Shown here: positions 1-43,457 of the stretch, piece by piece
Position numbering within the stretch: the stretch's first letter is position 1
How the letters are laid out: every line of letters starts with the position of its first letter
The notes under the pieces: model-generated
Told to the model about the DNA's origin: nothing
The model's input: only the letters and a program-made list of their open reading frames with translations
Database searches by the model: none
Position numbers and translations under genes: made by a program
Source: Escherichia phage JL1
Sequence record: JX865427
Strand: one strand, 5' to 3'
Length of the DNA: 43,457 nucleotides

Positions 1-7
1 GGTTTCC

Positions 8-1393
8 TTAGTAGAAGTCTACGGTTGGAACAACGGCGATCGGACGAATCACAGGGAACAAGTGCGCAATAGGGTAGCCTGCCGCGTCATTCATGTGGTC
101 CACACCGGCAGTTTTATCCGGTTCGCCTTTCTTCAGGTCGTACACCTGCTGTTCCAGGCATTTCGCTAGTGTAGGGCATTTATCCAGGTTGACAAAATAC
201 TGGCGCACGCCCTTCGAGTTGCACATCATCGTATTCATCGCGATAAGTCTGTCTTTCACAGGTGGGTTAACGCTGTCATACTCCACCTCGAAGCCCGCGT
301 CTTCCAGTTGTGCGATATCGGACGACGACGCGTTGACCGTCTTGCGGGATTTGCCGCTGCTATCCGGGTAAACGACAACACGACCGGCAGCACAATGATC
401 GGGGTAGCGCTCCTCGATCGCCTCAATCATAGCCGGGGTATCAAACAGGTCCACGAATTCATCCACCGCGTGAATCTCGTCGCGGAACTCCCTGTTCTCG
501 GTGACTCGCTGCCGTCTGACGTACACGACCGCCGCCATTTTCGTGACGTTAAAGTCCATACCGATAATCAGCGTGTCTTCCGGCTGCACTTCTTCGGTGC
601 TGGCGTTCTCCTCGCGGTTGAACATCTTGTACACCGCGCCCGACGTAAGGTTAACAAACAGGCCGTTCAGGTACGCATCGATCAGGTTAGTCGGGTACTG
701 ACTGCGCAGCGTGTCGATAAAGTCTGCCGGTAAATGGTGGTTGTCCGTGGTCTTCGCCCGGATCAGGCGCTTCTGGCTACCCTTCTCCACCTCGAAAATT
801 TGATACATCGCCCGGTAGCCTTCCGGCGTGGACACGATGACAAACTGGCGGACGAAGCCCGCGCGCAGACGACCGAGCAATTTGTGGTATGCCGCCATTG
901 CGACGTCTTGTTTCGTGGTGTCGAACTCGTCGGCAACAATCCACGCGGCGTTGACCCCGATCAGGCGGGTATAGTTCTCCATTGATTCACAGATAACGCG
1001 AGTCCATTTGCCTTTCACCAGCACGTTATAGATCTTGTCCTGCTTATTGAACTTCCACCGGAATCCGGCCTCGTCGAATGCCTTCTCCAGTTCCGGATAC
1101 ATGATTTTAACCAGGAGTGGAATAGTCGGTTCGGTCACGATGCCGTCATAACCAGGGTTAAGTGTCAGAAGCTGGATGACCTTACGCGCAGCTACCCACG
1201 ACTTGCCACCACCGAAGCCGGAACACAGGCCGAGGATTTTAGTCTTCGTGTCGCGCAGTAGTTCAACCTGGTGCGGCAAGCAATCAGGCTGGTAAATGCG
1301 GACGGCCTGCGCAACGCGTGTGGGGCGTGGCGGTCGGTTGCGCTTTGCGATCGCGCGTTCCAGTGCGCGGTGTTCTGCCGCATAGTTACGCAT
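8..1393 (-). CDS. terminase large subunit
   Basis: 461 aa; Walker A-like GFGGGKS near N-terminus; ATPase plus nuclease-length architecture; start overlaps upstream small-subunit stop (ATGA). Confidence 0.9.
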   Translation of the reverse strand: MRNYAAEHRALERAIAKRNRPPRPTRVAQAVRIYQPDCLPHQVELLRDTKTKILGLCSGFGGGKSWVAARKVIQLLTLNPGYDGIVTEPTIPLLVKIMYPELEKAFDEAGFRWKFNKQDKIYNVLVKGKWTRVICESMENYTRLIGVNAAWIVADEFDTTKQDVAMAAYHKLLGRLRAGFVRQFVIVSTPEGYRAMYQIFEVEKGSQKRLIRAKTTDNHHLPADFIDTLRSQYPTNLIDAYLNGLFVNLTSGAVYKMFNREENASTEEVQPEDTLIIGMDFNVTKMAAVVYVRRQRVTENREFRDEIHAVDEFVDLFDTPAMIEAIEERYPDHCAAGRVVVYPDSSGKSRKTVNASSSDIAQLEDAGFEVEYDSVNPPVKDRLIAMNTMMCNSKGVRQYFVNLDKCPTLAKCLEQQVYDLKKGEPDKTAGVDHMNDAAGYPIAHLFPVIRPIAVVPTVDFY

Positions 1394-1965
1394 TATTCAC
1401 CCTGGCCTTTGCCGGAAGGTTCGACAACTACGTCGCCGTTATCATCTTCGTCGTCGTCCAGCGGTACATCGTCGCGGACGCCGTGGTTTGCTTTAAGCAG
1501 GAATGTAGCGAAGCCCGCCGCGATGGTCACGCCGCCAGCTTCCATCAGGAAAGTTTTCTGCAACTCCATAGCATCCGCCATCGCCTCGGCGAACTCCTCA
1601 TGTGCTCGCGCCCAGCGATACAGGCAAGCTACGCCCACACCGATTTCCGCGGCAAATCGACCGAAGGTTGGCATTTTGTTGCGGGGGATTACTTGCGCAG
1701 CGCCTTTAGCGGAGTAGTTCACCTGCCAGGCGTCGGCGTCGGCAAAATAGCGGCGAAGCTGGTCGCAGTAAACGGATCGGTAGTCGGTCGGGCGTCCGCA
1801 TTTGCCGCCTTTACGGCGCTTTCCGTACTCGATTTCAGGTCCGAGATTGGTGTGCTCAGTTTGCTCGCCTGGTTTACGGCGCGGGGTTACTGCTACTCGT
1901 CCGTCCAGTTTGGCGCGTCGGCCCTTAACTTTGATTTCTGCCATGATATAAGCCCTTTTGTTCAT
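1393..1965 (-). CDS. terminase small subunit (start uncertain: 1965 or 1944)
   Basis: Immediately upstream of and translationally coupled to terL; HTH-like segment GRFAAEIGVGVACLYRWARAHEEF; the ORF-track start at 2043 is a TTG with an implausible N-terminus. Confidence 0.7.
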   Translation of the reverse strand: MNKRAYIMAEIKVKGRRAKLDGRVAVTPRRKPGEQTEHTNLGPEIEYGKRRKGGKCGRPTDYRSVYCDQLRRYFADADAWQVNYSAKGAAQVIPRNKMPTFGRFAAEIGVGVACLYRWARAHEEFAEAMADAMELQKTFLMEAGGVTIAAGFATFLLKANHGVRDDVPLDDDEDDNGDVVVEPSGKGQGE

Positions 1966-2074
1966 ATGCGCCGACCATCGGCAACATAGGAGACGGCCCT
2001 GCCATCTAACGGGGATTATAACAGGCACAAAAAAGCCCACCAAATCGGCAGGCTGGGAGGATTACTAGTTGCCG

Positions 2075-6397: not shown

Positions 6398-6424
6398 GTT
6401 CCGCCCTCCTGTTGGTGTGCAACC

Positions 6425-6453
6425 AATATAGCAGGGTGCCGGGGTGGATGCAA
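6425..6453 (-). promoter_or_regulatory. sigma70-like promoter TTGCAT-17-TATATT
   Basis: Read on minus strand; -35 embedded in ATTGGTTGCAT, second ATTGGTTGCA copy immediately after -10; ~20 nt upstream of RBS/ATG at 6397. Confidence 0.55.
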
Positions 6454-6612
6454 CCAATATTAATCACGCGCATGAAAAAGTTGATCGCTATCTGCTGTGA
6501 CTGCAAATTGCATTTTTCGCCCCACGTTCTGCATCTTGCATTGGTTGCCTAGTTCAGCGACGACCGCAATCCGCAACATGCTGCCGTATATTTTGCAATC
6601 CCGGATTTTATG

Positions 6613-6783
6613 CAGTCTCAGACGAGGGGGGTGACAGACCCCCCGTCTAGTCTGAAAGACTGGGAGTTGTCCCGCCTGTCCCGCTCCCCGCCAGGCCGCG
6701 TAATCCGGGGCGGGACAGGGGTGCTGTCCCGCCTTGTCCCGCCCCTGGTTTGTCCCGCTTTTTGTCCCGCTTACTTTATGCAG
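6613..6783. repeat. structured iteron element, copy A (52-bp hairpin module + 7 TGTCCCGC octamers)
   Basis: 52 nt identical to 33957-34008; contains G6/C6 hairpin, agtct-gaa-agact hairpin, octamers in both orientations including palindrome GGGACAG-N5-CTGTCCC. Confidence 0.8.
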
Positions 6784-6876
6784 TTTTATTGCATAACTAT
6801 GCATTATATTCACACTACACGGCAACCAATGCGACCAGCTAAAAGCACACAAAATGGCAACCAATGCGCGCAAAAT

Positions 6877-9141
6877 TTAATCTTTCAGGTCATCATCTGT
6901 CGCAGAAAGCGTGATGGGGATATCCGATTTGATGACTAAATTCGACGACCCATATATGGCCCCGGTGTGCGGATCTGTATAGAAACCAATCACGCCGCGC
7001 TCGACCATATCGTCGATTGCCTTCGTCGAAGTGCCACCCTTAGCGAGTCCCGCCTGGCGGACAATTGCCGATTTACTGAAACCAGTATGGTCCGGGTTAT
7101 CTTCCATCAGTTTTTCCAGGGCCGCATAGAGCACTTTCTCTTTTTCGTTGCGCGGACCGGCGGCGTTTTCCTCCTTAACCGCTGCTTTGCCCGCGGCCTT
7201 CGCCTGTTCTATAGCGAACGGAGCCAGGGCGACCGGAACGAGGTATAAAGTCTCGTCGCGTGGCGTGGACGCAATTGGTTTGACGTCCCAACCGGCAACA
7301 ACGTCTCCGAAGTCCGGCCCGGTGCTGGTGGACTGGTGCGCCTCGAACGCTTCTGACTTGCGGAGATCCACCTTCACCTTGCACTTGAGCAAGACGAAGC
7401 CACGCGGCGCTTGCTTGATGCCGTTACGTGATTTTTCGTGATACAGGTTAAGTTGTCCCGGCTGGTTGTCGTCCGGTTGTTCCAGGAAGAACGCAGAATC
7501 AACAGCACCATGCAGCGCACCGGATCCGCGTGGGGTTCTGCTGCCGTTTGCACCTTTCGCGGGGTGGTGGATGACGCCCGCACTGCCACCTGTATTTTCC
7601 GCAATGGCTTTCAGCGCTTTGACCACTTCACCCATATCGCTGGCGTTGTTCTCGTCGAACGGTTTAGCCTCGGCGGACCGCAGCGCAACAGTCTGGTTGA
7701 GTGAGTCGAACGCCACCAGGCCAACTGGTTCGCCGTTAGCGGTGCGGTTGATGAAGCTGATAACTTCGCGCAAGCCGGATTTGCTGGTGATATCCCAGCC
7801 GCGTGATTGCAGATCGATAATGTGCAGCTTGTCCAGGTCGTGCTCGTATTTAATCTGCAATGCTTCTTTACGCTGATTTGAGGCTTCGCCACCTTCCGCA
7901 TCGAAATAGAAGCAATGCGACTGGACTACCTTCGCACCACCAAACGGAATACCAGCGGCAACCGCACCCATCTGCCCCAGCACATAGAAGGACTTGCCGA
8001 TGTTCGACTCGCCCGCCATATACCAGGTCGATTTAAAGTTAATCAGACCTTCGATGATCGGGTCGTGTTTACTGAATAGTGCGACCGGCTCGTTATCCAG
8101 ATCCGCATCGGTGCACACGCCGTATTCTTCGCCGTCACCAACCGCATCAACAATATGCTCGTATAAGGATTCGACTTCCTCGTCGTCCAGCCCCGGCAGG
8201 ATGGCGGCGATTTGCTTACGGGACATATTGTGTGGCTCGACGTTCAGGTGGTCCGGGATACCTATAAGACGTAGCGCCAGGTGCTGGTGTCTATTCAGTT
8301 CCGAGCAACACTCGTTGCCGGTGTGCATACACTTGAAACGGATCTCGCCATCCTTGACCATGATAGCCGTTGACCCTTCGCCGCTGTGCAGATGTTCGTT
8401 CGGGCACGGCACTTCATAACCGCGACCGGACGACAGCGGTTCGAATCCTGCCTGGAAGCACCAGTCCAGAATACCGTCCGCCACTGCGTCGTCGCCCTGG
8501 GTAAGCTCGCGGCGTACTTCCTCCTTCTCCACCCCCAGCTTGTCCGCCAGGCGCAGCAGACGACGCACACTGGCGCGCTTGCCGTGGTGGCACTTAATGA
8601 CAGACTGCTGGTGTGGTAGGTACATAAGACGGTTTGTGTCTTTCGTGCAGTCGTCGAAGTCCACATCCGACAGACCAAGTTGGTGTAATAGAGCATACTG
8701 GACACGGCCCAGGTCTTCCGCCGGGACAGGCTTATCAGTGAGCACCAGGAAACGGGCGCAACGCGTTCCGCCCTTCAGCGGGTGGCGGTCGCCGGTAGTG
8801 GTGTGGAATACGTGCTCCAGCCCCGCGTCGATGAAAGCCTTACGGCAGCGGCGTAAAGTGCGGGTGTCGGTGCGGTCAATATCGAAGAACAGGATCGAGC
8901 GGTCCACCGCACTGGTCTTACGACGCAATCCGTCACTGGTATACGCCACGATGCCGTCGGCCTTACGCTTGCGGCGCGCATACTCGGCTTTATCTTCTGT
9001 CTTGTTGATATGCACCGAGGAGATTTCTTTCGCATCTTTGATAAATTCGAAAAATTCATCGGTGGTCATCTGGAAGTTTTCCGCCCTGGCTTTTTCGCCT
9101 TTTTTAGCGGGTCGTGTTACAGCGAATTTAATTAAGCTCAT
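6877..9141 (-). CDS. DNA primase / RecA-family replicative helicase fusion
   Basis: 754 aa; Walker A GESNIGKS in central ATPase domain, N-terminal primase-like region, C-terminal putative DNA-binding region. Confidence 0.8.
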   Translation of the reverse strand: MSLIKFAVTRPAKKGEKARAENFQMTTDEFFEFIKDAKEISSVHINKTEDKAEYARRKRKADGIVAYTSDGLRRKTSAVDRSILFFDIDRTDTRTLRRCRKAFIDAGLEHVFHTTTGDRHPLKGGTRCARFLVLTDKPVPAEDLGRVQYALLHQLGLSDVDFDDCTKDTNRLMYLPHQQSVIKCHHGKRASVRRLLRLADKLGVEKEEVRRELTQGDDAVADGILDWCFQAGFEPLSSGRGYEVPCPNEHLHSGEGSTAIMVKDGEIRFKCMHTGNECCSELNRHQHLALRLIGIPDHLNVEPHNMSRKQIAAILPGLDDEEVESLYEHIVDAVGDGEEYGVCTDADLDNEPVALFSKHDPIIEGLINFKSTWYMAGESNIGKSFYVLGQMGAVAAGIPFGGAKVVQSHCFYFDAEGGEASNQRKEALQIKYEHDLDKLHIIDLQSRGWDITSKSGLREVISFINRTANGEPVGLVAFDSLNQTVALRSAEAKPFDENNASDMGEVVKALKAIAENTGGSAGVIHHPAKGANGSRTPRGSGALHGAVDSAFFLEQPDDNQPGQLNLYHEKSRNGIKQAPRGFVLLKCKVKVDLRKSEAFEAHQSTSTGPDFGDVVAGWDVKPIASTPRDETLYLVPVALAPFAIEQAKAAGKAAVKEENAAGPRNEKEKVLYAALEKLMEDNPDHTGFSKSAIVRQAGLAKGGTSTKAIDDMVERGVIGFYTDPHTGAIYGSSNLVIKSDIPITLSATDDDLKD

Positions 9142-10427: not shown

Positions 10428-10433
10428 TATTAT

Positions 10434-10462: not shown

Positions 10463-10475
10463 AGAGGACGAGACA

Positions 10476-13400: not shown

Positions 13401-13418
13401 GGGCAAAGCCCACTATTC

Positions 13419-25030: not shown

Positions 25031-28000
25031 TTACCACGTCCCCACTTTCACCCTACCACCGCCAGGTAATGGCACGTTGACGCCAGTTGCGTCGATCGTA
25101 ACGGACCCGCCGGAGAATCCGAAATTACCCGTAGTCGCGAACAAGTTGCCTCGGACCGTTACGTTGTTGAACTCCGCCCCGCCATCCTTCGCGATACGCC
25201 AGCCGCTGCGACCAGGATTCCAGTTATTGGATTGCAGCGTGTCCGTGATCTGTGCGAAGTTGATGGACGCATTCTTGATGCGTGCGGTGTCAATGTACAC
25301 CTGTCCGCCGTCAACAATAAACGCGGACGAAAGCGACCCATTCGACGGGTGCATGATGTAGAACTGGTCCGCCTTGAACGCGATGCGTGATTTAACCGCG
25401 CCACCTTCCGCAACGACGGAAAGCTGCATACCGGCGTCGTAGTAAGCCCCGTTATACGTCACGCCCGCCTTAAGGCTATATGTGGCGCTGCCACCAGCAT
25501 GGTTAAACGTAGACGTCATCTTCTGCTCGATAGCGGCGGACTGCTGCCCGAACTGTGCCGCCACCTGGGTCTTGTACTCCGCCAGCGCGCCCGCTACGTC
25601 GGCAGTCGCCGTTTGTACCTGCTGGATGGCGGCTTCCTGTTCCCCGAACTTAGCGGCAACAGTTTGCTGATACTTGGCGAATGCTTGTTCGTGCGTGCTT
25701 TGCGCGGTCTGCAACGTGTGGATTGACGCCTCCGCATCATCAAGTCGTGTGCCGATCAACGTTTCCAGTTGCGCGACTGCCTTGTGGGCGTCTGCCGCCA
25801 CGTTATACGCCACCTTGATTTCCGCATAAATCCCTTTGTACTTGGCGCGGGCGTTGAATAACTGCTGGGCATCTGTGAGCATTGACTCGTAAATGCCTTG
25901 CGGGATCGTGTTAATAGCTTCCTGGAAGTGTTTACCATCCTCAGAAGTCAAGAACTCGTCATCAAGCCCCTTCATGTACTCGTCAACTTTGTCACTCACC
26001 TGGCCTTCGAACGGGGCGGACCAGTCCGACAGGTTGCCGATTTTATCCGCTACACGGGCGCGCAACTGCTGGTATATGCCGAACTCCAGCGACGTTTGCG
26101 CGTACTCCGCGCCAGGATAGGGGACGTTTGTTAAGAATTTCCATTCCGTTTCACCCGTCTTGCGCACTTCAAGCTCGGTGTATGATATATCAGTCGCAGC
26201 GTTGTTGTGGTTCCACTTCCATAGAATCTGGTGCAGACCCGAAATCGCGTTGGTGATGATTGGGGCGTTAAGCCCACCGAGGCGACCTTCCACCGGCGTG
26301 ATCGCGGAAGACACCCACGGGGACGAGATTTCGCCCATACCAATTGCGCGGACGCGTGCCTGATAGTTACCGGAGAACACGTTAGGGATGTGCGCCCCAT
26401 TCGACGCCGTGCGCGGGATATTCACCCAGTCGTTACCCCACTGGATCTCCATATTCTGCAGGCTAGTACGCCTCCACTGGATTTCATACACCACGGCATC
26501 TTTCACCGGCGGGAAAACAATATCCACGTTGGTGATTAGCTGGCCTTGCGATGAGATCTGCGACGGGGTGATGGTAACGGATTCCGGCCCCTTCATTACA
26601 CCGTCTGGCACTTGCGTAAAGATGCCTGGGTCTAGTCGTGCGCCATTATCAACGGCATCATACTTGCTATCGTTGTATTCAATCCCGCGCACCGAGAAAG
26701 TGCTGGTAGAGTCGTCATATTCCAGATCGGTGATGCGGAATTTCTGCAACTGGATATCATCGCCGTCAACGCAAAACGGTTGGTCTGGAATCGGGTCGGC
26801 ATCCAGTGCGGTTTTTAGCGTGACCTTGTTGCCGTTGACGCTGGCGATCTCGCGAGTCTCCACATTTCCGCTATCGGTGCGCACCAGGAACTTATCACCA
26901 GGGCGGAATGTGATTTCGCTGTCCGTGTTCAGCACGGTACGCGTTCCTGGGTCCGACAACAGGCGACCGCCGCGAGTCTCGAATCCGCCAGAAATGTTTG
27001 TATCCGCGATCGCGACTACGCTACCAGGAATAAAGAATAACCCTTCCATGCCCACCTTAAAACTAACTTGCTGGTCAAGCTGGTTGGATATTAGCGCCCA
27101 ATGCCCGCGGCGTTGCGCTTCGGATTCGCGCGTACAGCCGATCGCCGTAATATCAAGACGGTTAATCTTATGGCGGCGTACCAGTTCAACACGTTGGCCC
27201 GTTGCGATGGCGTCATCGTAGTGGTTTTTCGGATTGCCGTATGCTACCGCGAATGTGGAATAGCGAGTTTTCTGGCTGCCAGATGCGTAGTCGAATCGCC
27301 CATCAATAACAGATGCGTTGGTGATAGTGTGCGACACTGCTGCGACCGGTTGGTCACTGACGATATTCAACATCTGGTTGCCCCACCAGGTCATTCCGGC
27401 GAAGATGGCGGCCAAATCCTTAAGCACGGTCCAGGCATCCGTCTGTGACTGAATGTACATATCATTCTTAAAGCGGATTTCTCGACCACCGTTGCCGTCG
27501 CTGACCAACTGATCGCAGCGCTGCGCGATCTGGTAGAGCGCGTACCGGTTTAACATTTGCGGTTTGATACGCCGACCGAGGCCGAAGCGCTCAGTAATAC
27601 AAATATCGTACCAGTGCCACGCAGGGTTATCCGTCCATGCGCGTTTAAACGTGCCGTCCCAGTCCCCGGAATAAGTATGATTAATCGGGTCGTAGTTGTT
27701 CGGTATTAGAACTTTGCGGCCTTTGCACTTGATGGACACGCGCGGGATGTTCTGGAACGCTTTGGCGTCGAACTCCACAAACAACAGCGCGGTTAGCGGG
27801 TAACGCAGGCGGGCGTCGATAATCTCAGTGATGGACTGCACCTGGATATCATTAACCACTTTCGCCGATGTGGAGTCTGCCGTTATGCGGTGCACCTCCA
27901 CGCGCCAGCCGGTGTTAACGTTCGGCGGTAGCTCGATGCGGTGATCGCGCTCGTATAGCGACATTGTTTTACCAACGGCAGCGAAGGTAAACTCACGCGG

Positions 28001-28477
28001 GTCGGCGTTATCCGTATACACAACGATCTTATAGTCGATGCGCCCACCCACCAGGTCGCCATTATCTTCGTTTGTGTACAGGGCCGGAATGCCGATGCGA
28101 ATGCGCACGGCGTCCAGACTGGTATCGTTAATCTGGCGTACCCACGGCGTGCCGTTTTCCAGTTTTACGCCAACAGATTGCTCACTTTCCACCGCTGAAA
28201 ATCCGTGGATCACATCCTGGTGCTGTGTGCCGGGGCGGAACTCCACACGCGCGCCTGGGAAGTTTTCAGACAGGTCTGCATTCTGGATCGGTGTTCCGTC
28301 CAGATATACGCGCCGCCGTAATTCGTTAGGGTCTGGAATACCTTCGAACTCACCTTCTCCCAGCGCAAGCAAGATGCGGATTTTAGCCAGCGAATGCAGG
28401 CTATCGGGCGTCTCCTGTGGGGTGTGCTGTTTGCCGCCGCCGCCTTTATGCCCTGTGACGTCGTAGATAATCGTCAT
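25031..28477 (-). CDS. tail tip / host specificity protein (lambda J-like)
   Basis: 1148 aa; N-terminus with GGGGK...PDSLHSLAKIRILLALGEGEFEG, characteristic of J-family central tail fibers. Confidence 0.88.
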   Translation of the reverse strand: MTIIYDVTGHKGGGGKQHTPQETPDSLHSLAKIRILLALGEGEFEGIPDPNELRRRVYLDGTPIQNADLSENFPGARVEFRPGTQHQDVIHGFSAVESEQSVGVKLENGTPWVRQINDTSLDAVRIRIGIPALYTNEDNGDLVGGRIDYKIVVYTDNADPREFTFAAVGKTMSLYERDHRIELPPNVNTGWRVEVHRITADSTSAKVVNDIQVQSITEIIDARLRYPLTALLFVEFDAKAFQNIPRVSIKCKGRKVLIPNNYDPINHTYSGDWDGTFKRAWTDNPAWHWYDICITERFGLGRRIKPQMLNRYALYQIAQRCDQLVSDGNGGREIRFKNDMYIQSQTDAWTVLKDLAAIFAGMTWWGNQMLNIVSDQPVAAVSHTITNASVIDGRFDYASGSQKTRYSTFAVAYGNPKNHYDDAIATGQRVELVRRHKINRLDITAIGCTRESEAQRRGHWALISNQLDQQVSFKVGMEGLFFIPGSVVAIADTNISGGFETRGGRLLSDPGTRTVLNTDSEITFRPGDKFLVRTDSGNVETREIASVNGNKVTLKTALDADPIPDQPFCVDGDDIQLQKFRITDLEYDDSTSTFSVRGIEYNDSKYDAVDNGARLDPGIFTQVPDGVMKGPESVTITPSQISSQGQLITNVDIVFPPVKDAVVYEIQWRRTSLQNMEIQWGNDWVNIPRTASNGAHIPNVFSGNYQARVRAIGMGEISSPWVSSAITPVEGRLGGLNAPIITNAISGLHQILWKWNHNNAATDISYTELEVRKTGETEWKFLTNVPYPGAEYAQTSLEFGIYQQLRARVADKIGNLSDWSAPFEGQVSDKVDEYMKGLDDEFLTSEDGKHFQEAINTIPQGIYESMLTDAQQLFNARAKYKGIYAEIKVAYNVAADAHKAVAQLETLIGTRLDDAEASIHTLQTAQSTHEQAFAKYQQTVAAKFGEQEAAIQQVQTATADVAGALAEYKTQVAAQFGQQSAAIEQKMTSTFNHAGGSATYSLKAGVTYNGAYYDAGMQLSVVAEGGAVKSRIAFKADQFYIMHPSNGSLSSAFIVDGGQVYIDTARIKNASINFAQITDTLQSNNWNPGRSGWRIAKDGGAEFNNVTVRGNLFATTGNFGFSGGSVTIDATGVNVPLPGGGRVKVGTW

Positions 28478-31245: not shown

Positions 31246-33888
31246 TCATCGTTTGTAAAGTACACCACCCGGTTTCGTCGCCTTCACGATCTCGGCCTTC
31301 ACCGCCTCGGTGATTTGCTTGCCGAACGCCTGCGCGGTACGTGGGTCCGGCCCGCCAACACTGGTATCCGTCTTACCGGTCCCCGTGTAAACGTTAGTCG
31401 TCACGACCATACCACCGCCTGCGCCAGACGCGGCAACGCCCAGTTTCCCGTCCGGCCCGCGCTTCAGTGGCATGATGGCCTCGGGTCCAGCCTCACCCAT
31501 CAACCCAGCGCCCTTAGCGAACGCCTGGACGCCATAACTGAAAAAGGTAGGCTGGCTTACCACTTTCCCCGAATAGGCCGCGAGATTGCCTCCTGCGTAC
31601 GCTCCGCCGTCCGCATTCTTAGTAAGGCCAGAGAAGATAGCGCCGAACAATCCGTTTTTGCCGCCGTCACCACCGAAAGCGCTAACGATGGACTTGAACG
31701 CCTGCGAGGTAGCCAGCTTGATTAATTCGCTCAGGATGGACTTAACCATATCCTTTGCGTTCAGCTTGCCAGTCTCGAAAAACTCGTTCATCGTGTCCTG
31801 CATAGCGCTGAATGTGAATTTCGTGAGAGACGCCATCTGCGTATATCCGTTACCCATCTCATCCACGCTATCCTTAAGCCCGCGACTGAATCCATCCCAT
31901 AACGAGGCGTTAGCGCCGGTCTGTGCTTCCTGCACTTCTCGCAGCTTAGACACCGCCTTGTCAATATCGGTATCGTTAGCGCCTACACGCTTCAGGCGGT
32001 CGATTAGCTGCAATTCTTCGCGCAGGTTTGCCGCTTCGCGAGTGGAAAGCGCATAGCCCGCGGCGGTGGCTTTTAGTTCGGCGTTCTGGTTCTTAACGAA
32101 GGCATCGATCTGCGCGTGCGCCTTAACCTGCTTCTCTTTCGCGTCCAGCAATTTGGCTTCTTCGACGATCTGCTCGCGGACTTCCTTCACGCGCCCGAAC
32201 TCGACTAATTGCTGCTTTTCGGCTGCCGTTAGCGCTCTTTCTTTGCTTGCGGCGATTAACTGCTCATTGTCGGCGATCAGCTTGTTTAAGGCCGCTTGCG
32301 CGCGTTGCGTGCGTGTCTGCGTAGACGCGTTGGCTTCGATCTGCTTGCCGGATTCTCGAAGCTGGGCCAGTTCGCTCCGTGCGACTTCCAGCATTTTCAT
32401 ACCGGCATCCACGCGAACAGCCGCGGCCTTCTTCGGGGCCGGGTCTTTGTAACGCTCGTTTACCTGCTTAACCGCCTCGGCAAGCTCTTTCTCATCAATA
32501 ACGCCGCGCTTATTCAGCAAATTGAGGCGGGCGATCTCGTCGGCGCGCTTCTTCGCGTTAGTTGCGTACTCCTTTTCAAACGCGGCGCGGTCGCGGGCGG
32601 TGCGGTTGGCCTCCTCGTTCGCCTTTGCGGATTCATCTGCGGCGCGGGCGTTGTCTCGCTCCGCACGGTTACGCAGGGTGAGCGACGCCACTACCTTTTC
32701 CTGGGCGACCAGTTCGCTGTAAAGCATGTTAATACGTGCTTTCTGCGCTTCAGTCATTACCCCACCGGCAGCGTTTACCGCTTTCATCTCGGCATAGTAA
32801 GCCGTGGTCATGCGCTGGAGTGATTCGCGCGCTTTCATCTCGGACTCATTGGAGGACTGCGCGCGACCCACATCCAGGATAGCGTCCCACATTGATTTAG
32901 CTGCCGATGTGACGACGTTCATAGACCGCTCAAGCGTACCCATGTTCGCCTTGATCTCATTGGTCATGCTGGTGAACGACGCAGCGGCTGTTTTGTTAGC
33001 CAACGCAACTGCGTCTGTCTCACGACCCGCATCAACCAGCGACTGTACCTGCTGGATCTGCGCTTCGTTTACGACGTGATACTTATCCGCCAGTGCGCGC
33101 AAGCCGCCTACCGGGTCGGTTGACAGCTTCGCCACCGCCGCCACCACATCCTCGATCGGCTGGCTGGACACCTTCGCAAAGTCATTCACTACCTTAGCCA
33201 ATGCGCCAAAGTCACCACCCGCTTTCACACCCGCCGCCGCCAGCGCCTGGATTGTGTCACGCGTCTTGCGAAATGACCCGCCCATGCGCTCGGCGTTCTC
33301 GGACAGCACAAGGATCTGGTTAGCTGTCAGGCCTGAAATATTACCGGACAGCGCCAGCGTCTTATTAAGCGCCGCCACCTGGTTCTCTGCGCGGGTCGTA
33401 ATTGCCACCCCTACGCCGAGCGTTGCCGTTAATGCAGCGATGCCAATCCCTAACGGGCCGAGTGTGCCGACGACATAATGCAGCGTGTTTCCCAGTCCGC
33501 CAAACGCCCCAGTAAGCTGCGGTAGCTGCTGAAGCATAACGCGGTGCACCGGCATACCCATCTCAAGCGTAACCGCGATATCCTGTAACTGGAATGCGGC
33601 GTTCCGCGATGCGAATCCCAGGTTCTTGGTCGACATGCCTAATCGGCTGGCTAGTCGCTCCTGTTTCGTCATGCCGTCGGCGGCGCGCTGCGATTCAGTC
33701 GCTAACTTTTCCATTCCGCCCGCGGCGTCGCCAGTAACCTTTTTCGACTTGCCGAGGGTGTCGTTTAATTTTTTGACTTTCTGTTCTGTGTTCTCGGATT
33801 TCTGCGCAAATGTGTCCAGCACAGTATTCGCCGTTTTAATTTGCGCGACGTCCGCCTTGAGCGTGATGCCCGCTGCCTGATCTGCCAT
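31246..33888 (-). CDS. tail tape measure protein
   Basis: 880 aa, long alpha-helical A/K/E/Q-rich middle, Gly-rich hydrophobic segments; position. Confidence 0.9.
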   Translation of the reverse strand: MADQAAGITLKADVAQIKTANTVLDTFAQKSENTEQKVKKLNDTLGKSKKVTGDAAGGMEKLATESQRAADGMTKQERLASRLGMSTKNLGFASRNAAFQLQDIAVTLEMGMPVHRVMLQQLPQLTGAFGGLGNTLHYVVGTLGPLGIGIAALTATLGVGVAITTRAENQVAALNKTLALSGNISGLTANQILVLSENAERMGGSFRKTRDTIQALAAAGVKAGGDFGALAKVVNDFAKVSSQPIEDVVAAVAKLSTDPVGGLRALADKYHVVNEAQIQQVQSLVDAGRETDAVALANKTAAASFTSMTNEIKANMGTLERSMNVVTSAAKSMWDAILDVGRAQSSNESEMKARESLQRMTTAYYAEMKAVNAAGGVMTEAQKARINMLYSELVAQEKVVASLTLRNRAERDNARAADESAKANEEANRTARDRAAFEKEYATNAKKRADEIARLNLLNKRGVIDEKELAEAVKQVNERYKDPAPKKAAAVRVDAGMKMLEVARSELAQLRESGKQIEANASTQTRTQRAQAALNKLIADNEQLIAASKERALTAAEKQQLVEFGRVKEVREQIVEEAKLLDAKEKQVKAHAQIDAFVKNQNAELKATAAGYALSTREAANLREELQLIDRLKRVGANDTDIDKAVSKLREVQEAQTGANASLWDGFSRGLKDSVDEMGNGYTQMASLTKFTFSAMQDTMNEFFETGKLNAKDMVKSILSELIKLATSQAFKSIVSAFGGDGGKNGLFGAIFSGLTKNADGGAYAGGNLAAYSGKVVSQPTFFSYGVQAFAKGAGLMGEAGPEAIMPLKRGPDGKLGVAASGAGGGMVVTTNVYTGTGKTDTSVGGPDPRTAQAFGKQITEAVKAEIVKATKPGGVLYKR

Positions 33889-33949: not shown

Positions 33950-34270
33950 CCTTATTCAGTCTCAGACGAGGGGGGTGACAGACCCCCCGTCTAGTCTGAA
34001 AGACTGGGCTTTGTCCCGCCTGTCCCGATCGGCTAAAACCCGCGGCAGCACTGGCGGGGACAGGGGTGCTGTCCCGCTTTGTCCCGCCCAATTCTGTCCC
34101 GCTTTTTGTCCCGTTTGTTTTATGCACGAAAATCGAATAGATATTCACATTTTGGGGGCGGGACAAAGCGGGACAGCACCCCTGTCCCGCTTTTAATTTA
34201 TGCAATGAAAGTGAGTATATATGCGGTTTAGTGGTGGCGGGACAAAACGGGACGTCCCGCCTGTCCCGCT
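33950..34270. repeat. structured iteron element, copy B (52-bp hairpin module + ~14 TGTCCCGC octamers)
   Basis: 52 nt identical to 6613-6664 plus homologous octamer array; extra inverted octamers; fills the ~385-bp gap between the GT stop and the tape measure start. Confidence 0.8.
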
Positions 34271-35019: not shown

Positions 35020-35745
35020 TTACGACAGCGCCTCGACCAAGTCCTTACGGTAAATAACCATATCGGACTGCATAGTGAGGGTGGACTCCACCGTCTCCAC
35101 GTTGTTTACTTCAGCAGATGGAATCTTCTGGAAAGACACCTTAGCCGGGTAAATGCGGATCTCACCTTTGCCGCTTGCCGCTGCCGGGTTGGTGAACTTA
35201 ATCACAGTGGTTTTCTGTGTGTCGTCCAGGTCTTCCAGAATCGGGCGGATCGGGTCTTCTTCGTCGTGGGTGAAAGTGTAGGTCTGGACCAACGGGTTTT
35301 TCGTGGTGTTCAGACTGATCGCGGTATTCACCTGCAACGGCTGGAAGGTGGTGGTCTGCTGGTCGCCACCCGACACACCAACGTTAGTGATAAACGGGAA
35401 GTCGATAAAGCTCGACACCTTCACCACCTCACCCGGTGTGCCTACGCCGAAAGCACCGGTCGGGTATTTGGTTACGTCTTGAGTATCGAAGCGCGCCAGC
35501 GTCACGTCGTTAGCATCCACTTTACCCACGATGAACGCGCGGTTAAGCGCACGTACCCACGGGGTTTTAGTGAACATAACCACGTCTCCCACAGCAAGAC
35601 CATGCGACTCCGCGCAGGTGATAACGCAGCCTTGCGTAAGATCGGAGATTGACGCCGCGGCGTTGGTCGCTGCCGTAACTGCGATGCCTGCACCCAATAC
35701 GGACCCGATCTGCACGCTGGACCCGTTAGGAAGTTGATAACCCAT
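35020..35745 (-). CDS. major tail protein
   Basis: 241 aa; position upstream of the G/GT chaperone genes; AGGAG RBS; followed by terminator. Confidence 0.75.
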   Translation of the reverse strand: MGYQLPNGSSVQIGSVLGAGIAVTAATNAAASISDLTQGCVITCAESHGLAVGDVVMFTKTPWVRALNRAFIVGKVDANDVTLARFDTQDVTKYPTGAFGVGTPGEVVKVSSFIDFPFITNVGVSGGDQQTTTFQPLQVNTAISLNTTKNPLVQTYTFTHDEEDPIRPILEDLDDTQKTTVIKFTNPAAASGKGEIRIYPAKVSFQKIPSAEVNNVETVESTLTMQSDMVIYRKDLVEALS

Positions 35746-37840: not shown

Positions 37841-38941
37841 TTAGGACGCTGTGGTCGCAGTCAGCGTAACCAGTACGCCCGCCGTTTCCTTGATGTGACG
37901 GGTAGGCACTGCCTGTGCGGCCTGGGTCTTACGACGGACTTTAGTATCGCCATCACCCACCGCACCAACGTCCTGAACGGTTGCCGGTGCGTTGTCTACC
38001 TGGCCCTGATCCAGCTCCCAGTTGTCCTTAGTGGTGATATCGGACAGCGTGAACGAGCGTACCCCTTCGATCGGAGTACGAGCGGACGCCTTCAGACGAT
38101 AGCCTTTAACAGCCACGTTGAAGTCGAACTCGCCCTGCCACCAGCGCTCAATGTTCTCGTTACCGCCTTTTTCCTGCGCCAGCATATCAAGGCCGTTGGT
38201 GGTAACTGCAACCGCGCCAGGGACCAGACCCAGCATTTTACCCGCGCCCATTGCATCGGCAGCGGCATCGGAGATAATGAAACGGCGGCCCAGACCATCG
38301 CCCATTACCTGCAGATCGCCGATCGCGAATACCTGCTCGGCAGATGGAAGCGCCTGGTAAGCGATGAAGTTTGCCCAGGTAACGCCATCCATAAACCAGG
38401 ACTTAATCAAAGACGCCTGATCGCCGAACTTAGAAGCCGCCAGCGGGAAGTCTGCCAGGGTCGGGAATGTACGACCGCCAACGCCGTCAACGCGAGCCGG
38501 TTGGGTGTAGTTTGCCGCTGTGTTGCTTTCGATAGCCGCTTTACCCGCGCCGATACCAGCTTTCAGATAGTGCAGCATAATCGCTTGAGTTGCCTGTGCC
38601 GCAATCTCAGCCGCAACGCTGTTAACGTTGGTTTCGATTTTAGCCATCATGGCCTTCGTGATCGCAACCGGACCCACTTTCGCGGAAAGGTTAACCGAGT
38701 TGGTCAGCATACGCGCCAGCACTTTTGCGGTTGCCGGTGTACCGACAGGGGCATAGGCGTTACGGTCGGTAACGAGGTTGGCGATCAAGCCTACGGACAT
38801 TTTTTCTACAACGTCCTTAAGCACTTCACCCGTACCGAGAACAACAGCGCCGTTAGCGGCAGCGTTGAACACGTTCAGGTTATCGGGAATCATTTGCGTA
38901 ACCGCGGTGACGAGTTTACGCTGGAACACTGTTAAAGACAT
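37841..38941 (-). CDS. major capsid protein
   Basis: 366 aa; position after the scaffold gene; AAAGGA RBS; followed by strong terminator. Confidence 0.85.
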   Translation of the reverse strand: MSLTVFQRKLVTAVTQMIPDNLNVFNAAANGAVVLGTGEVLKDVVEKMSVGLIANLVTDRNAYAPVGTPATAKVLARMLTNSVNLSAKVGPVAITKAMMAKIETNVNSVAAEIAAQATQAIMLHYLKAGIGAGKAAIESNTAANYTQPARVDGVGGRTFPTLADFPLAASKFGDQASLIKSWFMDGVTWANFIAYQALPSAEQVFAIGDLQVMGDGLGRRFIISDAAADAMGAGKMLGLVPGAVAVTTNGLDMLAQEKGGNENIERWWQGEFDFNVAVKGYRLKASARTPIEGVRSFTLSDITTKDNWELDQGQVDNAPATVQDVGAVGDGDTKVRRKTQAAQAVPTRHIKETAGVLVTLTATTAS

Positions 38942-39038: not shown

Positions 39039-39740
39039 TTACTCGTCGCCCATTTTAGCAATGATATCCCCGGCCTGTTTCGTCAAGTCAGTGATACCGA
39101 AGCTGTGTCCCATAGTGATTTTCGACTTCACATCTTCGACGACCTGCGTCGGTTTGCTCGGAGCACCACCGGCTGGCGTGCCAGCCAGGACGGATGCAAA
39201 ATCGGCGTTACTACGGAACTCTTTTTCTAGCTCTTCCATAGTCAGCGCGGAGGGTTTGCCGTCCTTCAGTACCCGCACCTTCAAGCTGCCGTCCTCGCCG
39301 TCTTCCAGCGTGAGGCGGTCCATAACGTGGCGTTGCATGATGCCGGCATTCTTACCGAACAGCTTCGAGGCCAAATCTTTGGCAGCGCTGCCGATGGTTA
39401 AGTCGTGGATCTGCTTGCGGTAGGCTTCGATTTTCCCCGATGTGTCCGCTTCATGTTTTGCGAACTTATCCTTCCAGGATTTATCAATCGCTTCGAGGTC
39501 GCCATTTTTGCGCGCGGCGGCTTCCTCTTTCTCTTTCGCAAGGCGCTCGGCTTCGGCGCGACGTTCGGCTTCTGCTTTCTTCTCGCTCACCAGCTTCGCG
39601 TTGTTGTCTTTCAGACCCTTGATCTCCGCCTGTACTTCTTCGGCGGTCATGAACGTGGATTTATACCCATCACCATCGGCAACAAATAAAGCCTTCATGC
39701 CTTCTGGCAACGCGTCATATTCTGCTTTAGTAAGTTTCAT
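39039..39740 (-). CDS. scaffolding protein
   Basis: Highly charged A/E/K-rich helical sequence immediately upstream of the capsid gene; start set at MKLTKAEY with AGGGGGA RBS. Confidence 0.7.
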   Translation of the reverse strand: MKLTKAEYDALPEGMKALFVADGDGYKSTFMTAEEVQAEIKGLKDNNAKLVSEKKAEAERRAEAERLAKEKEEAAARKNGDLEAIDKSWKDKFAKHEADTSGKIEAYRKQIHDLTIGSAAKDLASKLFGKNAGIMQRHVMDRLTLEDGEDGSLKVRVLKDGKPSALTMEELEKEFRSNADFASVLAGTPAGGAPSKPTQVVEDVKSKITMGHSFGITDLTKQAGDIIAKMGDE

Positions 39741-39880
39741 GCTATCCCCCTGGGATTGTGGCAAAGCGGGCCACCCGCTTGACTTCACGCCTTAATATTA
39801 TCAGTGATAAAAATAATCGCAAAATTCGCTTGCGCTGCTGGAATTGGTTGCACACCAACATAGATATGAAGGAAAACAAA

Positions 39881-40651: not shown

Positions 40652-40853
40652 CCTCTTTCGTGATAGTCCGGTATTCTACGTCGCGGGCTTGTTCGGCCTG
40701 CACGGAGCGCTCAACAACTTTAGTTTGCTGCCGTTGGGCTTTGGCTTGCGCTTCTTGCGCCGCCTCCGCCACTACGCCAGCGCGATAGGAGTCGCCTAGC
40801 CAGAATCCTACCGCCAGACCGATAACCAGTCCAATCGCTGCATACTTAATCAC
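40524..40853 (-). CDS. i-spanin (Rz-like)
   Basis: N-terminal TM helix followed by A/Q/E-rich helical periplasmic domain; overlaps the lipoprotein ORF. Confidence 0.6.
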   Translation of the reverse strand: MIKYAAIGLVIGLAVGFWLGDSYRAGVVAEAAQEAQAKAQRQQTKVVERSVQAEQARDVEYRTITKEVVKYVTRPNRPDCSFDAERVRIKQRAVDAANGVGTATAVQVR

Positions 40854-41949
40854 GCCATAACCCCCGGTTTTTAAGCTGTGCGATAGTCATTAGTTCGCCG
40901 GAATCGGAGAACATCTTCGGCACTTTCACGCCGCGCATAATCTGGTCGGCGCGTTGCACTCCGTATAATTCTTCCAGGATATGGCGCGGCTGGCGCTGCA
41001 CCCATGAGAAGAAATCAGTCTGCGCGTCGACCTGCTCACTCAGCAACCTACCCGCGTCAGCCTTCAGTGCCGGACGCTTACCACTGGGCCAATCTTCCAT
41101 GCCTTTAACCTTCCACGTCTCCGTAGACCGGCAGCAATAATGCAACTTGCCCGGACCAGCGCCATATTGTGATCCAGCCACCACTTTCCCGCCGCGCTTT
41201 CCTTTGGTGTCGGGAGTAACATCAACCGGATAAAACAGGCGATCGCGTAGCTGGCACATGGGAGAAGTATGCGTGTCCAATGTAGATAACCATTGGCGAC
41301 CTTCGAGAATATCGTCATTTGCTTTTACCATTAGTTCGCGGGCGGTCGCCGCATAGTGGTTGACTGCGGACTTAACAACGCTTGAGAGAGCTTGCGCACT
41401 ACGACCGCCGAGCGCGCGCCTCACGTCCGCTATAATTTCCAAAGTCGGCTTACCCTGGATGAATCCCGCGCGCACCTGATTGCCGATCTGCGTCCTGGTC
41501 CATTCTGAAAGTGAATCGGGCCATTGCATCATCGTATTACCCTGGAACGGGTTTTTAATCGCAGTCGCTGCGATCTGCGCACCTGTCACCACGCCCACCA
41601 CCTCGATCGCAGGTACGGCGACCACCGGCTGGATCGCTGCCGTTAATGTGTCGGTGAGATAATCAGCCTCCGTGTCGGCGAACTCCTGAAGGCTTTCAGC
41701 CAACGCCTTAAACTCGGTGCGCAATTCTGATTTAACGGTCTTGTCGATTTGCGTTAGCAGGGTGGAAAGTGCCCTGTTATTCATTGACGATTTGCCATCA
41801 AGCAACTCGGTCAGCTTTCCCAGTAATGTGGGCCGGAACTTCTCCCACATGGACAGCACCCTTCGCGCCTGGTCATTGCTAAGGCGCTGGGTGAAGATGT
41901 GACGGCGAATCATTCGATCCGCCATATATTGATTAATTGTCTTCGCCAT
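40846..41949 (-). CDS. head morphogenesis protein (Mu F / SPP1 gp7-like)
   Basis: 367 aa directly downstream of and overlapping the portal gene. Confidence 0.75.
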   Translation of the reverse strand: MAKTINQYMADRMIRRHIFTQRLSNDQARRVLSMWEKFRPTLLGKLTELLDGKSSMNNRALSTLLTQIDKTVKSELRTEFKALAESLQEFADTEADYLTDTLTAAIQPVVAVPAIEVVGVVTGAQIAATAIKNPFQGNTMMQWPDSLSEWTRTQIGNQVRAGFIQGKPTLEIIADVRRALGGRSAQALSSVVKSAVNHYAATARELMVKANDDILEGRQWLSTLDTHTSPMCQLRDRLFYPVDVTPDTKGKRGGKVVAGSQYGAGPGKLHYCCRSTETWKVKGMEDWPSGKRPALKADAGRLLSEQVDAQTDFFSWVQRQPRHILEELYGVQRADQIMRGVKVPKMFSDSGELMTIAQLKNRGLWRD

Positions 41950-43453
41950 TGTCCGCTACCTTGTCCTGGTCTTCTTCGGTAGATTCTACCGCATCCGGGG
42001 ACATTTGAGGCAATGGATTCTGATTTCGCAGTTCGTCTTCCACCTGCTCGACGGTTTGCGAGTCATCGATAACGCCCTGGGCCATCATCCACTTGATAAA
42101 GTCCGCCAGACGGACCGTACCGGTCTGCACACCCGCCATCATTGCGGTCATAAGCTGTGCATCCACCGTGATCTCGGTGTAGAACTTATTCAGCGTTACA
42201 CGTTGATCTGCGGTGTCCCCCGTGAACAGCTTGACGATTTGCAGCGCACGGTTGAAAGCCTTCTCAACGTTACCGGCAATAAGTGACAGGATACTGTTAT
42301 CAGTCTGCGCATCGTAGGCCGCTTCAGTTGCCGTCTTAGGTGCGGTCCCCTTCTCGACCAGGGCCGCGCCCAGTTTAGCCATTTGCAATTCGCGTCGCTC
42401 ACACAGCGCAACTGACAGGTTTCGCTCCTCCGCCTGAAGCAGTTTAGCGTCCATGTTCTGACCCAGGATGACGCCTTTAGTTGCCCCGAGCGCGATGCCG
42501 CCCTTCAGGTTTTTATCAGCCCATGATTGGGTCAAGCCGGTCGCAACTAGGGTAGGTTGACCTACGATGTGCGCAATCTCTGCGACGTCAGCTTCGGCGT
42601 TGTAGTGCTTAATGTTGATGGACGCGATATCCGCCAGCGGTGCGGCATCTGGTGTCGCATTGTTATCCACCGCGCCACACCAACAGAAAGGCAGTTGAGT
42701 AAGCGCATTACCGTCGGCATCCACCAGCGGCACAAGGTCGGTGCGGGTGAAGCCACGCGGCAAGTCCATTTGCACTTCGGACGTGTCCGCGTTGTAAAAC
42801 CAGCGGCGGGCGTGTGCCACACCGTTAATCATGCGAAGCTCAGTCCAGATCGTTACTTCGTGGTTTGCGAAGTCGTCCGGGTCTTCGGTGCTGATTTCAT
42901 CCGTCTCCTTCAGCACGATTAGCGTGTCGACGCCGTGTGTCTGCCGCCAGTTGATGATCTGTTCAGCCGTATACAGGCGGATAAGCGGGCGGTGTGCCGC
43001 CATTTCAGCGGCTGTCTGCGGCACTACGTTACCCAGTTCGTCAAAATGCGCCTGGCGGTCGTAGTCCACCATAAAGCCCGCGCGGCCCGATTGCAGCACT
43101 TCCGACATAGCGCCGCGCAGGAGTTGCGCCAGCGGCATCCCGCTGCCGTCTACGTCATCAATCAGGTCAGCCATTGCCCCGGAAATGTCCATACTCACCG
43201 GTTTGGCGAAGGCCACGCCTAACAGTGCATTCAGTGTGCGGGCGGTGGCGTTCAGGAAGACAGCGCGTTGCTTATATGCCTTATAGCGTGCCCGTGATTT
43301 CGGGTCGGTGGTGTCGCCGCTGGCTGGGTGTGGCAGGTACAATGGTCCGCACGCCTTCACGGCTCGCTCCCCTGCTACGCAGTCACGGATCATTTTCCAC
43401 TCGGGCGCGATGCGCGCATAGAGCGGGTGCTGGTTGTCAACGTTAACGGTCAT
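41933..43453 (-). CDS. portal protein
   Basis: 506 aa with acidic C-terminal tail; precedes the head morphogenesis gene; its RBS lies across the window ends right after the terL stop. Confidence 0.85.
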   Translation of the reverse strand: MTVNVDNQHPLYARIAPEWKMIRDCVAGERAVKACGPLYLPHPASGDTTDPKSRARYKAYKQRAVFLNATARTLNALLGVAFAKPVSMDISGAMADLIDDVDGSGMPLAQLLRGAMSEVLQSGRAGFMVDYDRQAHFDELGNVVPQTAAEMAAHRPLIRLYTAEQIINWRQTHGVDTLIVLKETDEISTEDPDDFANHEVTIWTELRMINGVAHARRWFYNADTSEVQMDLPRGFTRTDLVPLVDADGNALTQLPFCWCGAVDNNATPDAAPLADIASINIKHYNAEADVAEIAHIVGQPTLVATGLTQSWADKNLKGGIALGATKGVILGQNMDAKLLQAEERNLSVALCERRELQMAKLGAALVEKGTAPKTATEAAYDAQTDNSILSLIAGNVEKAFNRALQIVKLFTGDTADQRVTLNKFYTEITVDAQLMTAMMAGVQTGTVRLADFIKWMMAQGVIDDSQTVEQVEDELRNQNPLPQMSPDAVESTEEDQDKVADNGEDN

Positions 43454-43457
43454 GGTC

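Follow-up and report, generated by a model that had tools for sequence, protein, structure and literature searches.

The 43,457-bp sequence of Escherichia phage JL1 (54.8% GC; the whole stretch of DNA analysed, hereafter the window) opens next to the stop codon of terL and closes next to the start codon of the portal gene. This arrangement raises the question of whether the two ends of the window are ends of the phage DNA or only the place at which a circular map was opened and, if the latter, whether the genome is complete and how it may be packaged. The plus strand opens with ggtttcc followed by tta at position 1, and the terL stop codon, located at 8-10 on the minus strand, is read there as TAA from 10 to 8. 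At the other end the plus strand closes with cat followed by ggtc at position 43457, and the portal ATG, located at 43451-43453 on the minus strand, is read from 43453 to 43451. Direct reading thus places both codons where a previous inspection limited to the letters and open reading frames (the sequence-only reading) had put them. Joining the ends generates TAAGGAAACCGACCATG, and the minus strand over the join reads CTAC TAA GGAAACCGACC ATG ACC. The resulting terL-portal spacer is 11 nt long, 7 nt being contributed by the start of the window and 4 nt by its end:

1..7, minus strand: proximal part of the spacer, GGAAACC, which contains the GGA of an AAGGA Shine-Dalgarno-like core.
43454..43457, minus strand: distal part of the spacer, GACC, directly 5' of the portal ATG.

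The AAGGA core shares bases with the terL stop codon, and its end lies 8 nt upstream of the portal ATG. Alignment showed that in phages HK578 and SSL-2009a the spacer and the junction are base-for-base identical to those of the joined window, and that all relatives examined have a spacer of 10-13 nt with a Shine-Dalgarno-like core; in phage Ioannina, with 82% identity, the spacer sequence differs and GAGGA is kept. A 1200-nt probe over the join was found as a single unbroken piece in 153 of the 155 phage GenBank records that it matched. The join falls within a 5112-nt ungapped alignment to phage B2, and the two ends of the window fall on neighbouring bases in B2, YD-2008.s, Lzu_P3 and Lzu_P1. 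The window ends do not overlap as prefix and suffix by 8 nt or more, and an inverted terminal repeat or an assembler-type overlap was sought there and not found. Therefore the join neither lacks nor repeats a base, and the last base followed by the first restores the native sequence without gap or duplication. As judged from these comparisons, the match to the relatives is far beyond chance and the join is the native terL-portal spacer. The native junction can be considered established, and the proposal that the window ends form a genuine terL-to-portal junction stands.

The window gives the reverse complement of the Dhillonvirus records and has its opening between terL and the portal gene, not at terS; in the proposed scheme it would be a linear record of the usual terS-first layout, turned over and cut inside the 11-nt spacer. 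Since the opening lies inside this spacer, the window ends are ends of the record and not of the DNA. The record of Opt212 (NC_073055.1), a separate isolate about 94% identical across the compared region, has the same orientation and an opening 4 nt from that of the window. As in the window, its terL is found next to the record start (12..1397, minus strand) and its portal start codon next to the record end; in Opt212 this codon constitutes the final three bases, the record being opened 4 nt further on, directly at the portal ATG. The records of other relatives open at terS, at the DNA polymerase gene or elsewhere.

If the genome were linear and physically ended here, between terL and the portal gene, Opt212 would be the sole support for it, as one other public record opened within 4 nt. 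The paper describing this phage, however, itself gives a circular assembly and headful packaging (PMC9022532). Moreover, a cut inside the 11-nt spacer would part the portal gene from its ribosome-binding site, the window ends lack terminal repeats or overlaps, the sequence is continuous at the join in nearly all matching relatives, as described above, and the ends of relatives that were defined by reads map to window position 6497. Physical termini at this place are hence hardly credible. A cut within an 11-nt spacer, together with the opening of Opt212 4 nt away, looks like one chosen at a gene boundary, and the opening was probably deliberate rather than random. The suggestion of an assembly that was opened arbitrarily fits in that the opening is clearly not biological, with the refinement that its site was probably chosen. 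Any "different gene arrangement" seen against HK578 or SSL-2009a comes from the site of opening and the orientation of the record and is an artefact. Differences of this kind were taken for rearrangements in earlier comparative papers on the genus, according to a passage quoted in PMC5945888. Annotation pipelines would best handle terL and the portal gene as neighbours.

The genes located around the join and those that follow are:

8..1393, minus strand: terL, large terminase subunit, 461 aa, with Pfam Terminase_6N and Terminase_6C above the curated cut-offs and the PHROG annotation "terminase large subunit".
1393..1965, minus strand: terS, small terminase subunit, 190 aa, with the start as annotated in B2 and HK578.
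2034..2054, minus strand: hairpin resembling a terminator and carrying a T-run, located between terS and the gene for the phosphoesterase.
41933..43453, minus strand: portal protein, 506 aa (PHROG 145 portal; Pfam DUF4055).
40846..41949, minus strand: head morphogenesis (minor head) protein, 367 aa (PHROG 241).
39039..39788, minus strand: head scaffolding protein (PHROG 206).
37841..38941, minus strand: major head protein (PHROG 247).
35020..35745, minus strand: major tail protein (PHROG 584).
31246..33888, minus strand: tail length tape measure protein (PHROG 24).
25031..28477, minus strand: central tail fibre J / host specificity protein (PHROG 31).

TerL shows 98.7% amino acid identity to that of B2 and 97-99% to those of the genus Dhillonvirus, and its ATG shares bases with the terS stop codon (TAATG). 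In the alignment the start of most terS homologues corresponds to the ATG at 1944, which is 7 codons further downstream. The list of open reading frames includes a 216-aa terS version starting from a TTG at 2043, which was rejected as over-extended; PHROG 3064 "terminase" aligns from its residue 37. After the hairpin at 2034..2054 an extended -10-like sequence, TGTTATAAT, was read by eye, on which the scan made no call. The portal ORF matches the solved portal structures 10ec_A and 11cq_A from end to end (residues 1-506, about 1100 bits), and the gene overlaps the following one, for head morphogenesis, by 17 nt. From terS through terL and portal to the head morphogenesis gene, the genes lie close together and are probably co-translated. 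The identities of the genes and their order are established: PHROG assignments and the annotation of HK578 agree with the terS-terL-portal-head-tail order that had been predicted to appear after joining.

These results place the window in the genus Dhillonvirus, which includes HK578, SSL-2009a, B2 and YD-2008.s as well as Shigella phage EP23 and Sodalis phage SO-1, with gene content and order as in the window. The ICTV genus criterion, as quoted in PMC8306585, asks for a nucleotide identity above 70% across the length of the genome; the window has 91-97% identity with 92-100% coverage to HK578, SSL-2009a, B2, YD-2008.s, SO-1 and others. The terS-terL-portal-head-tail module, the lysis cassette, the helicase-primase gene and the DNA polymerase I gene are syntenic. 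Members of the genus are siphoviruses with a lytic lifestyle on Enterobacterales, and the long tape measure protein and the tail tip of the lambda J type fit such a morphology. No identical record exists in the searched collection, the best local identities being 96-97%.

When rotated to the start of terS, the window is collinear with B2 round the full circle, and the differences are limited to known variable accessory regions, e.g. about 20.3-23.5 kb and 39.1-40.0 kb in the rotated coordinates. In other relatives 92-99% of the central 20 kb (window 10000-30000) is covered. The length is within the range of the genus, 42.6-47 kb. It lies toward the short end of this range, as it would if the assembly were partial or chimeric, the genome incomplete and the ends near terL and the portal gene by chance. 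That explanation is very improbable given the collinearity round the whole circle, a junction that is base-for-base that of the relatives, and the presence of every core module. The completeness of the genome, which the sequence-only reading had thought likely, is therefore established. The window is an ordinary complete Dhillonvirus unit of the HK578/SO-1 type, a kind of genome that was already known, and the main value of this result, itself already known, is practical: the window is the whole genome and its ends have no biological meaning.

A different position stands out when the record starts of relatives are compared. In at least six independent related GenBank records (UDS3lw, WFI, PTXU06, Zar3M, Pandora71 and 101114B2) the start is one common nucleotide, which corresponds to window position 6497. 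In the study that described WFI and PTXU06 the records were linearized at the position at which most reads stopped, and stopped abruptly, and the organisation of published relatives was used as a fallback when no ends were detected (Korf et al., PMC6563267). The shared start could in part stem from authors having adopted the layout of an older record rather than from independent mapping of ends. The features at this locus are:

6497..6498, minus strand: candidate start of the packaging series (pac end), deduced from the record starts of relatives.
6425..6876, minus strand: "region B", a conserved noncoding stretch that lies downstream of the helicase-primase gene and is annotated as repeat_region in SO-1.
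6877..9141: helicase-primase gene.

At the candidate pac the minus strand reads TTTGCAGTCA followed, across the putative cut, by CAGCAGATAGCGATCAAC. The noncoding sequence round 6497 is near-invariant across the genus in the alignment and is also present in the window. A promoter of the form TTGCAT-17-TATATT read by eye just downstream of 6497 is not claimed, the consensus scan having made no call. Region B includes seven exact copies of GCGGGACA (6668-6770) and five exact copies of ATTGGTTGC. A second noncoding island, "region A" (window about 34012-34269), is found inside the tail operon and carries GCGGGACA arrays like those of region B. The literature search retrieved no paper describing regions A and B of SO-1.

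Among the published analyses of relatives that drew on reads, the majority arrived at headful packaging with circular permutation; two reports disagree. Opt-212 gave a circular assembly with a headful call by PhageTerm (PMC9022532), BF9 was described as headful, permuted and P1-type (PMC10059673), and UDS3lw received a headful PhageTerm call with a preferred pac site (PMC13348001). Four of the five bov Dhillonviruses were scored as circularly permuted, the fifth, bov25_1D, being scored as having "fixed" termini (PMC8407724), and for EE09 a 5' cos of 10 nt, ATCTTAAGGG, was called (PMC10673088). The packaging-strategy paper of Merrill et al. does not cover the phage group of the window. Headful packaging, as suggested by the sequence-only reading, is predicted for the phage studied here from these relatives.

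A lambda-like 5' cos such as that of EE09 was considered for the window and rejected. The decamer ATCTTAAGGG has no exact copy in the window, and its two matches with one mismatch are at chance level (48 of 100 shuffles gave at least two). The flanking 28-mer and 38-mer of EE09 are absent from the window at up to 3 mismatches, the first 100 nt of EE09 have no counterpart in it, and EE09 carries the conserved 6497 region internally.

Defined, non-permuted ends may nevertheless lie elsewhere, for instance at 6497 or close to it, in the form of cohesive ends or of a short direct terminal repeat. The window would still be artificially opened and yet not circularly permuted, and the circularity of the assembly would come from nothing more than cohered ends or the collapse of a repeat in the contig. 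This would account for the exact base shared by the record starts and for the "distinct start and end points" where reads stopped abruptly that were described by Korf et al. (PMC6563267), as well as for the "fixed" score of bov25_1D (PMC8407724) and the "COS 5'" score of EE09 (PMC10673088). Against it, seven relatives were scored headful or permuted from reads, and one of the records that start at the 6497 base, that of UDS3lw, was called headful with pac, a situation in which one sharp end is found. The record ends of WFI, Zar3M and Pandora71 adjoin their own starts, and hence there is no repeat in these records. The results with EE09, whose decamer occurs in the window at chance level only and which holds the 6497 region internally, argue in the same direction. 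Defined ends at or near 6497 are thus unlikely, and headful packaging from a preferred site is favored.

We are fairly confident that the window is one full genome of a Dhillonvirus, a presumably lytic siphovirus of E. coli, that the record was artificially opened in the terL-portal spacer and that the DNA would be packaged by a pac/headful mechanism. Replication would generate concatemers, on which the terminase would make its first cut at a preferred site (pac), placed from the record starts of relatives at window 6497. Heads would then be filled with slightly more than one genome length, proceeding toward the lysis, terminase and structural genes. The virion DNA would as a result be terminally redundant and circularly permuted, and would assemble as a circle. 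The position of pac and the direction of packaging are what we infer from the relatives; judged by the record starts, 6497 is the likeliest start of the packaging series in the window. It is possible, although we put this forward only tentatively, that the series starts by a precise cut between 6497 and 6498 in region B and that the GCGGGACA arrays bind a phage protein that organises the initiation of packaging or replication. TerS is one candidate for this binder, a replication factor or a late-gene factor another. If true, this would be a pac architecture unmapped so far for Dhillonvirus, experimental pac mapping for this genus having not been found in the literature searched. The read-defined end common to several relatives at 6497 is in any case a cheap, testable lead for work on packaging in this widely used coliphage group.

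The terminase subunits were compared with those of other systems. TerL showed only a sub-threshold match to the PBSX-family model TIGR01547 in NCBIfam, and a sequence search of the PDB gave at best E ~0.3, to the terminase of 5oe8/5oea. For TerS, the matches to Pfam GP3_package (E=1.8e-4; 22.1 bits, below the cut-off of 29.4) and Sf6_terminase (E=8.6e-4) were sub-threshold, and precomputed PF16677 and PF20901 matches exist on two TerS homologues. Neither the single TerS sequence nor a 10-sequence profile had a significant match in the PDB, where the profile found Sf6 gp1 at E ~0.08-0.1. Outside the genus the closest TerL is that of Pantoea phage MED16 (52% identity), followed by those of Jerseyvirus and Kagunavirus (about 40%). 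For MED16, whose TerS matches that of P22 by HHpred, PCR spanned the ends of the contig and defined termini were not found (PMC8306585). For MED16, Jerseyvirus and Kagunavirus defined ends are reported or assumed to be absent; these phages belong to other genera, with about 23% genome nucleotide identity to HK578 (PMC8306585).

The headful pac phages P22, Sf6, SPP1 and P1 share with the window a Terminase_6-type TerL and a circular genome map, and the similarity of the window TerS to P22 gp3 and Sf6 gp1 is weak, below curated thresholds. In P22, Sf6 and SPP1 the pac site is located in or next to terS, whereas the candidate pac of Dhillonvirus would lie in a noncoding region with repeats, some 4.5 kb upstream of terS. 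A recent read-validated example of headful pac packaging is Morganella phage Mecenats66. The Dhillonvirus relatives resemble such phages in that one sharp read-defined end goes together with calls of permutation.

The record ends are flanked by two minus-strand genes:

8..1393, minus strand, 461-aa ORF (terL), TAA stop at 10..8
41933..43453, minus strand, 506-aa ORF (portal), ATG at 43453..43451

Read directly, the plus strand starts with the 10 bases ggtttcctta and its last 12 bases are acggtcatggtc. With 43457 joined to 1, the minus strand reads ...GACTTCTAC TAA GGAAACCGACC ATG ACCGTT..., in which terL and portal are separated by an 11-nt spacer across the joined ends. The AAGGA core of this spacer overlaps the terL stop, with 8 nt between its last base and the portal ATG. 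The coordinates and joined sequence proposed in the sequence-only reading were correct when both ends and the join were read directly. The window ends share no prefix/suffix overlap as long as 8 nt.

Alignment of relatives across the join showed that the joined sequence is identical, base for base, to those of HK578 and SSL-2009a, that the spacer of SO-1, UDS3lw and BF9 has one C fewer, and that the distant Ioannina (82% identity) has another spacer, of 13 nt, with GAGGA retained. The window ends fall on neighbouring bases of B2 (30619 and 30620), YD-2008.s (29439 and 29440), Lzu_P3 (9811 and 9812) and Lzu_P1 (40417 and 40418). Of the 155 records that match a 1200-nt junction probe, consisting of the last 600 and first 600 window bases, 153 cover it without a break. 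When the window was rotated to the terS start and compared to B2, a 5112-nt gap-free alignment crossed the join and the other alignment blocks followed in order round the circle. Because the ends map to adjacent bases, the probe is unbroken, the genomes are collinear, the junction is identical in relatives and the ends do not overlap, the window is exactly one genome unit that joins without loss or duplication. The adjacent mapping, the probe and the B2 collinearity support the earlier proposal that the ends form a functional terL-portal junction of a complete genome. One related record, PQ843332.1 (Escherichia phage P-GXEC-L2P5), is 88,607 bp long, about twice the unit length, and is matched by each probe at two or three places; this probably reflects assembly as a head-to-tail dimer, not a larger genome.

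The terL ORF matches Terminase_6N and Terminase_6C above the curated Pfam thresholds, as well as PHROG large-terminase families. Residues 1-506 of the 41933..43453 product align with residues 1-506 of the solved portal proteins 10ec_A (PDB title 'Portal protein gp03') and 11cq_A, with bit scores of about 1100, and the PHROG portal family is also matched. Many GenBank relatives call this gene 'minor tail protein' or 'structural protein'; despite these labels it is the portal gene. PDB 10ec and 11cq are structures of near-identical portal proteins, and 8xb5 is a more distant one. Upstream of terL are found:

1393..1965, or 1393..1944 from the commonest homologue start, minus strand, terS (small terminase), PHROG 3064
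2054-2034, minus strand, terminator-like hairpin within the over-extended part of the terS ORF

Pfam matches of terS to P22 gp3 and Sf6 gp1 were weak and sub-threshold. The PHROG profile and nine homologues place the terS start at the ATG at 1944 (MAEIKVKG...); the B2 and HK578 annotations place it at the ATG at 1965. The mechanical ORF from TTG 2043 (216 aa) is an over-extended terS, and its added part also includes TGTTATAAT, read by eye as an extended -10. Directly upstream of terS, at 2075-3217 and with the hairpin standing in between, is a 380-aa calcineurin-like phosphoesterase/DNA-repair-exonuclease homologue (PHROG 704), whose position is kept genus-wide. In the sequence TAATG the stop of terS overlaps the start of terL, and portal overlaps the head-morphogenesis gene by 17 nt. 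The minus-strand order from terS is terS, terL, portal, head morphogenesis, scaffold, major head, major tail, chaperones, tape measure, minor tail proteins, J and tail fibre; the PHROG assignments and the HK578 annotation bear out the terS-terL-portal-head-tail order claimed before.

The chance of a random cut falling in the 11-nt spacer is 11/43457. The Opt212 RefSeq record (NC_073055.1) has the window's orientation and opens 4 nt away, at the portal ATG, which forms its final three bases; its terL is at 12..1397. Records of HK578, SSL-2009a, EP23 and SO-1 open at terS, that of B2 at the DNA polymerase gene, and further records elsewhere. We infer that the window opens at a gene boundary picked by the depositor and not at a DNA end.

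Evidence on the packaging mode comes from read-based reports on relatives. Opt-212 and four sister phages gave circular assemblies, with a PhageTerm call of headful for Opt-212 (PMC9022532); for BF9 the call was headful, permuted and P1-type (PMC10059673); PhageTerm assigned UDS3lw headful packaging with a preferred pac site (PMC13348001); and of five bovine Dhillonviruses, four were scored as circularly permuted (PMC8407724). Discordant calls are those of bov25_1D, scored 'fixed' (PMC8407724), and EE09, assigned a 10-nt 5' cos, ATCTTAAGGG (PMC10673088). Nothing corresponding to this decamer or its flanks is present in the window. Outside the genus, the nearest TerL is that of Pantoea phage MED16 (52% identity), followed by those of Jerseyvirus and Kagunavirus (about 40%). 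The MED16 contig ends were bridged by PCR, no defined termini were found, and its TerS was matched to P22 TerS by HHpred (PMC8306585). PDB sequence searches with TerL and TerS gave no informative match for placing TerL among experimentally typed terminases.

A candidate physical end lies at 6497. The first base of UDS3lw matches minus-strand position 6497 of the window; in the WFI, Zar3M and Pandora71 records the last base adjoins the base matching 6497; and alignment of record starts showed that UDS3lw, WFI, Pandora71 and Zar3M start from one and the same nucleotide, reading CAGCAGATAGCGATC.... PTXU06 and 101114B2 also start there. In all, at least six independent related GenBank records, from laboratories in the USA, Germany, Kazakhstan and Greece, start exactly at this point (6497/6498, minus strand ...TTTGCAGTCA before the break and CAGCAGATAGCGATCAAC... 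after it), and one of the six was called headful with pac. The site is within about 450 nt of noncoding sequence that lies downstream of the helicase-primase gene and that the SO-1 record labels repeat 'region B'. The 100 nt past the break are nearly invariant, the most divergent members included, and GATC is present just past the break. Coverage over window 6400-6600 was below 80% in 15 of 156 records; Opt212, one of these, is divergent in this interval. Some depositors may have copied the layout of an earlier record. Two of the six records come from a study that linearized genomes at abrupt read ends if any were detected, and only otherwise followed the arrangement of published relatives (PMC6563267). 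Position 6497 probably marks where the packaging series of the genus starts. A preferred first cut (pac) at 6497/6498, about 4.5 kb upstream of terS, is the reading that fits best; packaging from it would run toward the lysis, terminase and structural genes.

Two short motifs are over-represented in the window. The exact 8-mer GCGGGACA is present in 17 copies versus 1.8 expected, clustered on both strands in two noncoding islands, with one further copy at 16425:

6668-6770, both strands, region B copies, after the helicase-primase gene
34012-34269, both strands, region A copies, flanked by the tail chaperone genes on one side and the tape measure gene on the other

Region A has a perfect 33-nt inverted repeat (34057-34089/34156-34188), and the SO-1 GenBank record annotates both regions as repeat regions of possible function. 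Iterons, regulator sites and terminase binding sites are possible roles of these arrays. The 9-mer ATTGGTTGC is present in 14 copies versus 0.5 expected:

3380, 5689, 6419, 6450, 6540, 6822, 6857, 9673, 16171, 19113, 19130, 20663, 23751, 39843, copies of ATTGGTTGC

Five of them are in region B, and several are by eye noncoding or at or near gene boundaries. This element looks like a phage-specific promoter or operator; a sigma-70 consensus scan called no promoters at its copies.

The window is the complete genome, with arbitrary record ends, of a well-sampled phage genus, and as such is ordinary and already known at genus level; the sole mildly novel lead is the common read-defined end in region B together with the surrounding repeat arrays. 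No record identical to the window was found in the collection searched. The window's best matches, B2 and YD-2008.s, are also the phages described as nearest to JL1 (PMC5945888). If the window is JL1, the 'different gene arrangement' of the JL1 paper would be explicable by rotation and reverse complementation. The Campylobacter and Acinetobacter host labels of MG065648.1 (Campylobacter phage A144) and OQ221563.1 (Acinetobacter phage NJ01), which share more than 90% identity with E. coli Dhillonviruses, look like host mis-attribution or contamination. The window ends match about 155-177 Dhillonvirus records at 90-97% identity, the central 20 kb has Dhillonvirus matches likewise, and by sequence the window belongs with these HK578/SO-1-like E. 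coli siphoviruses.
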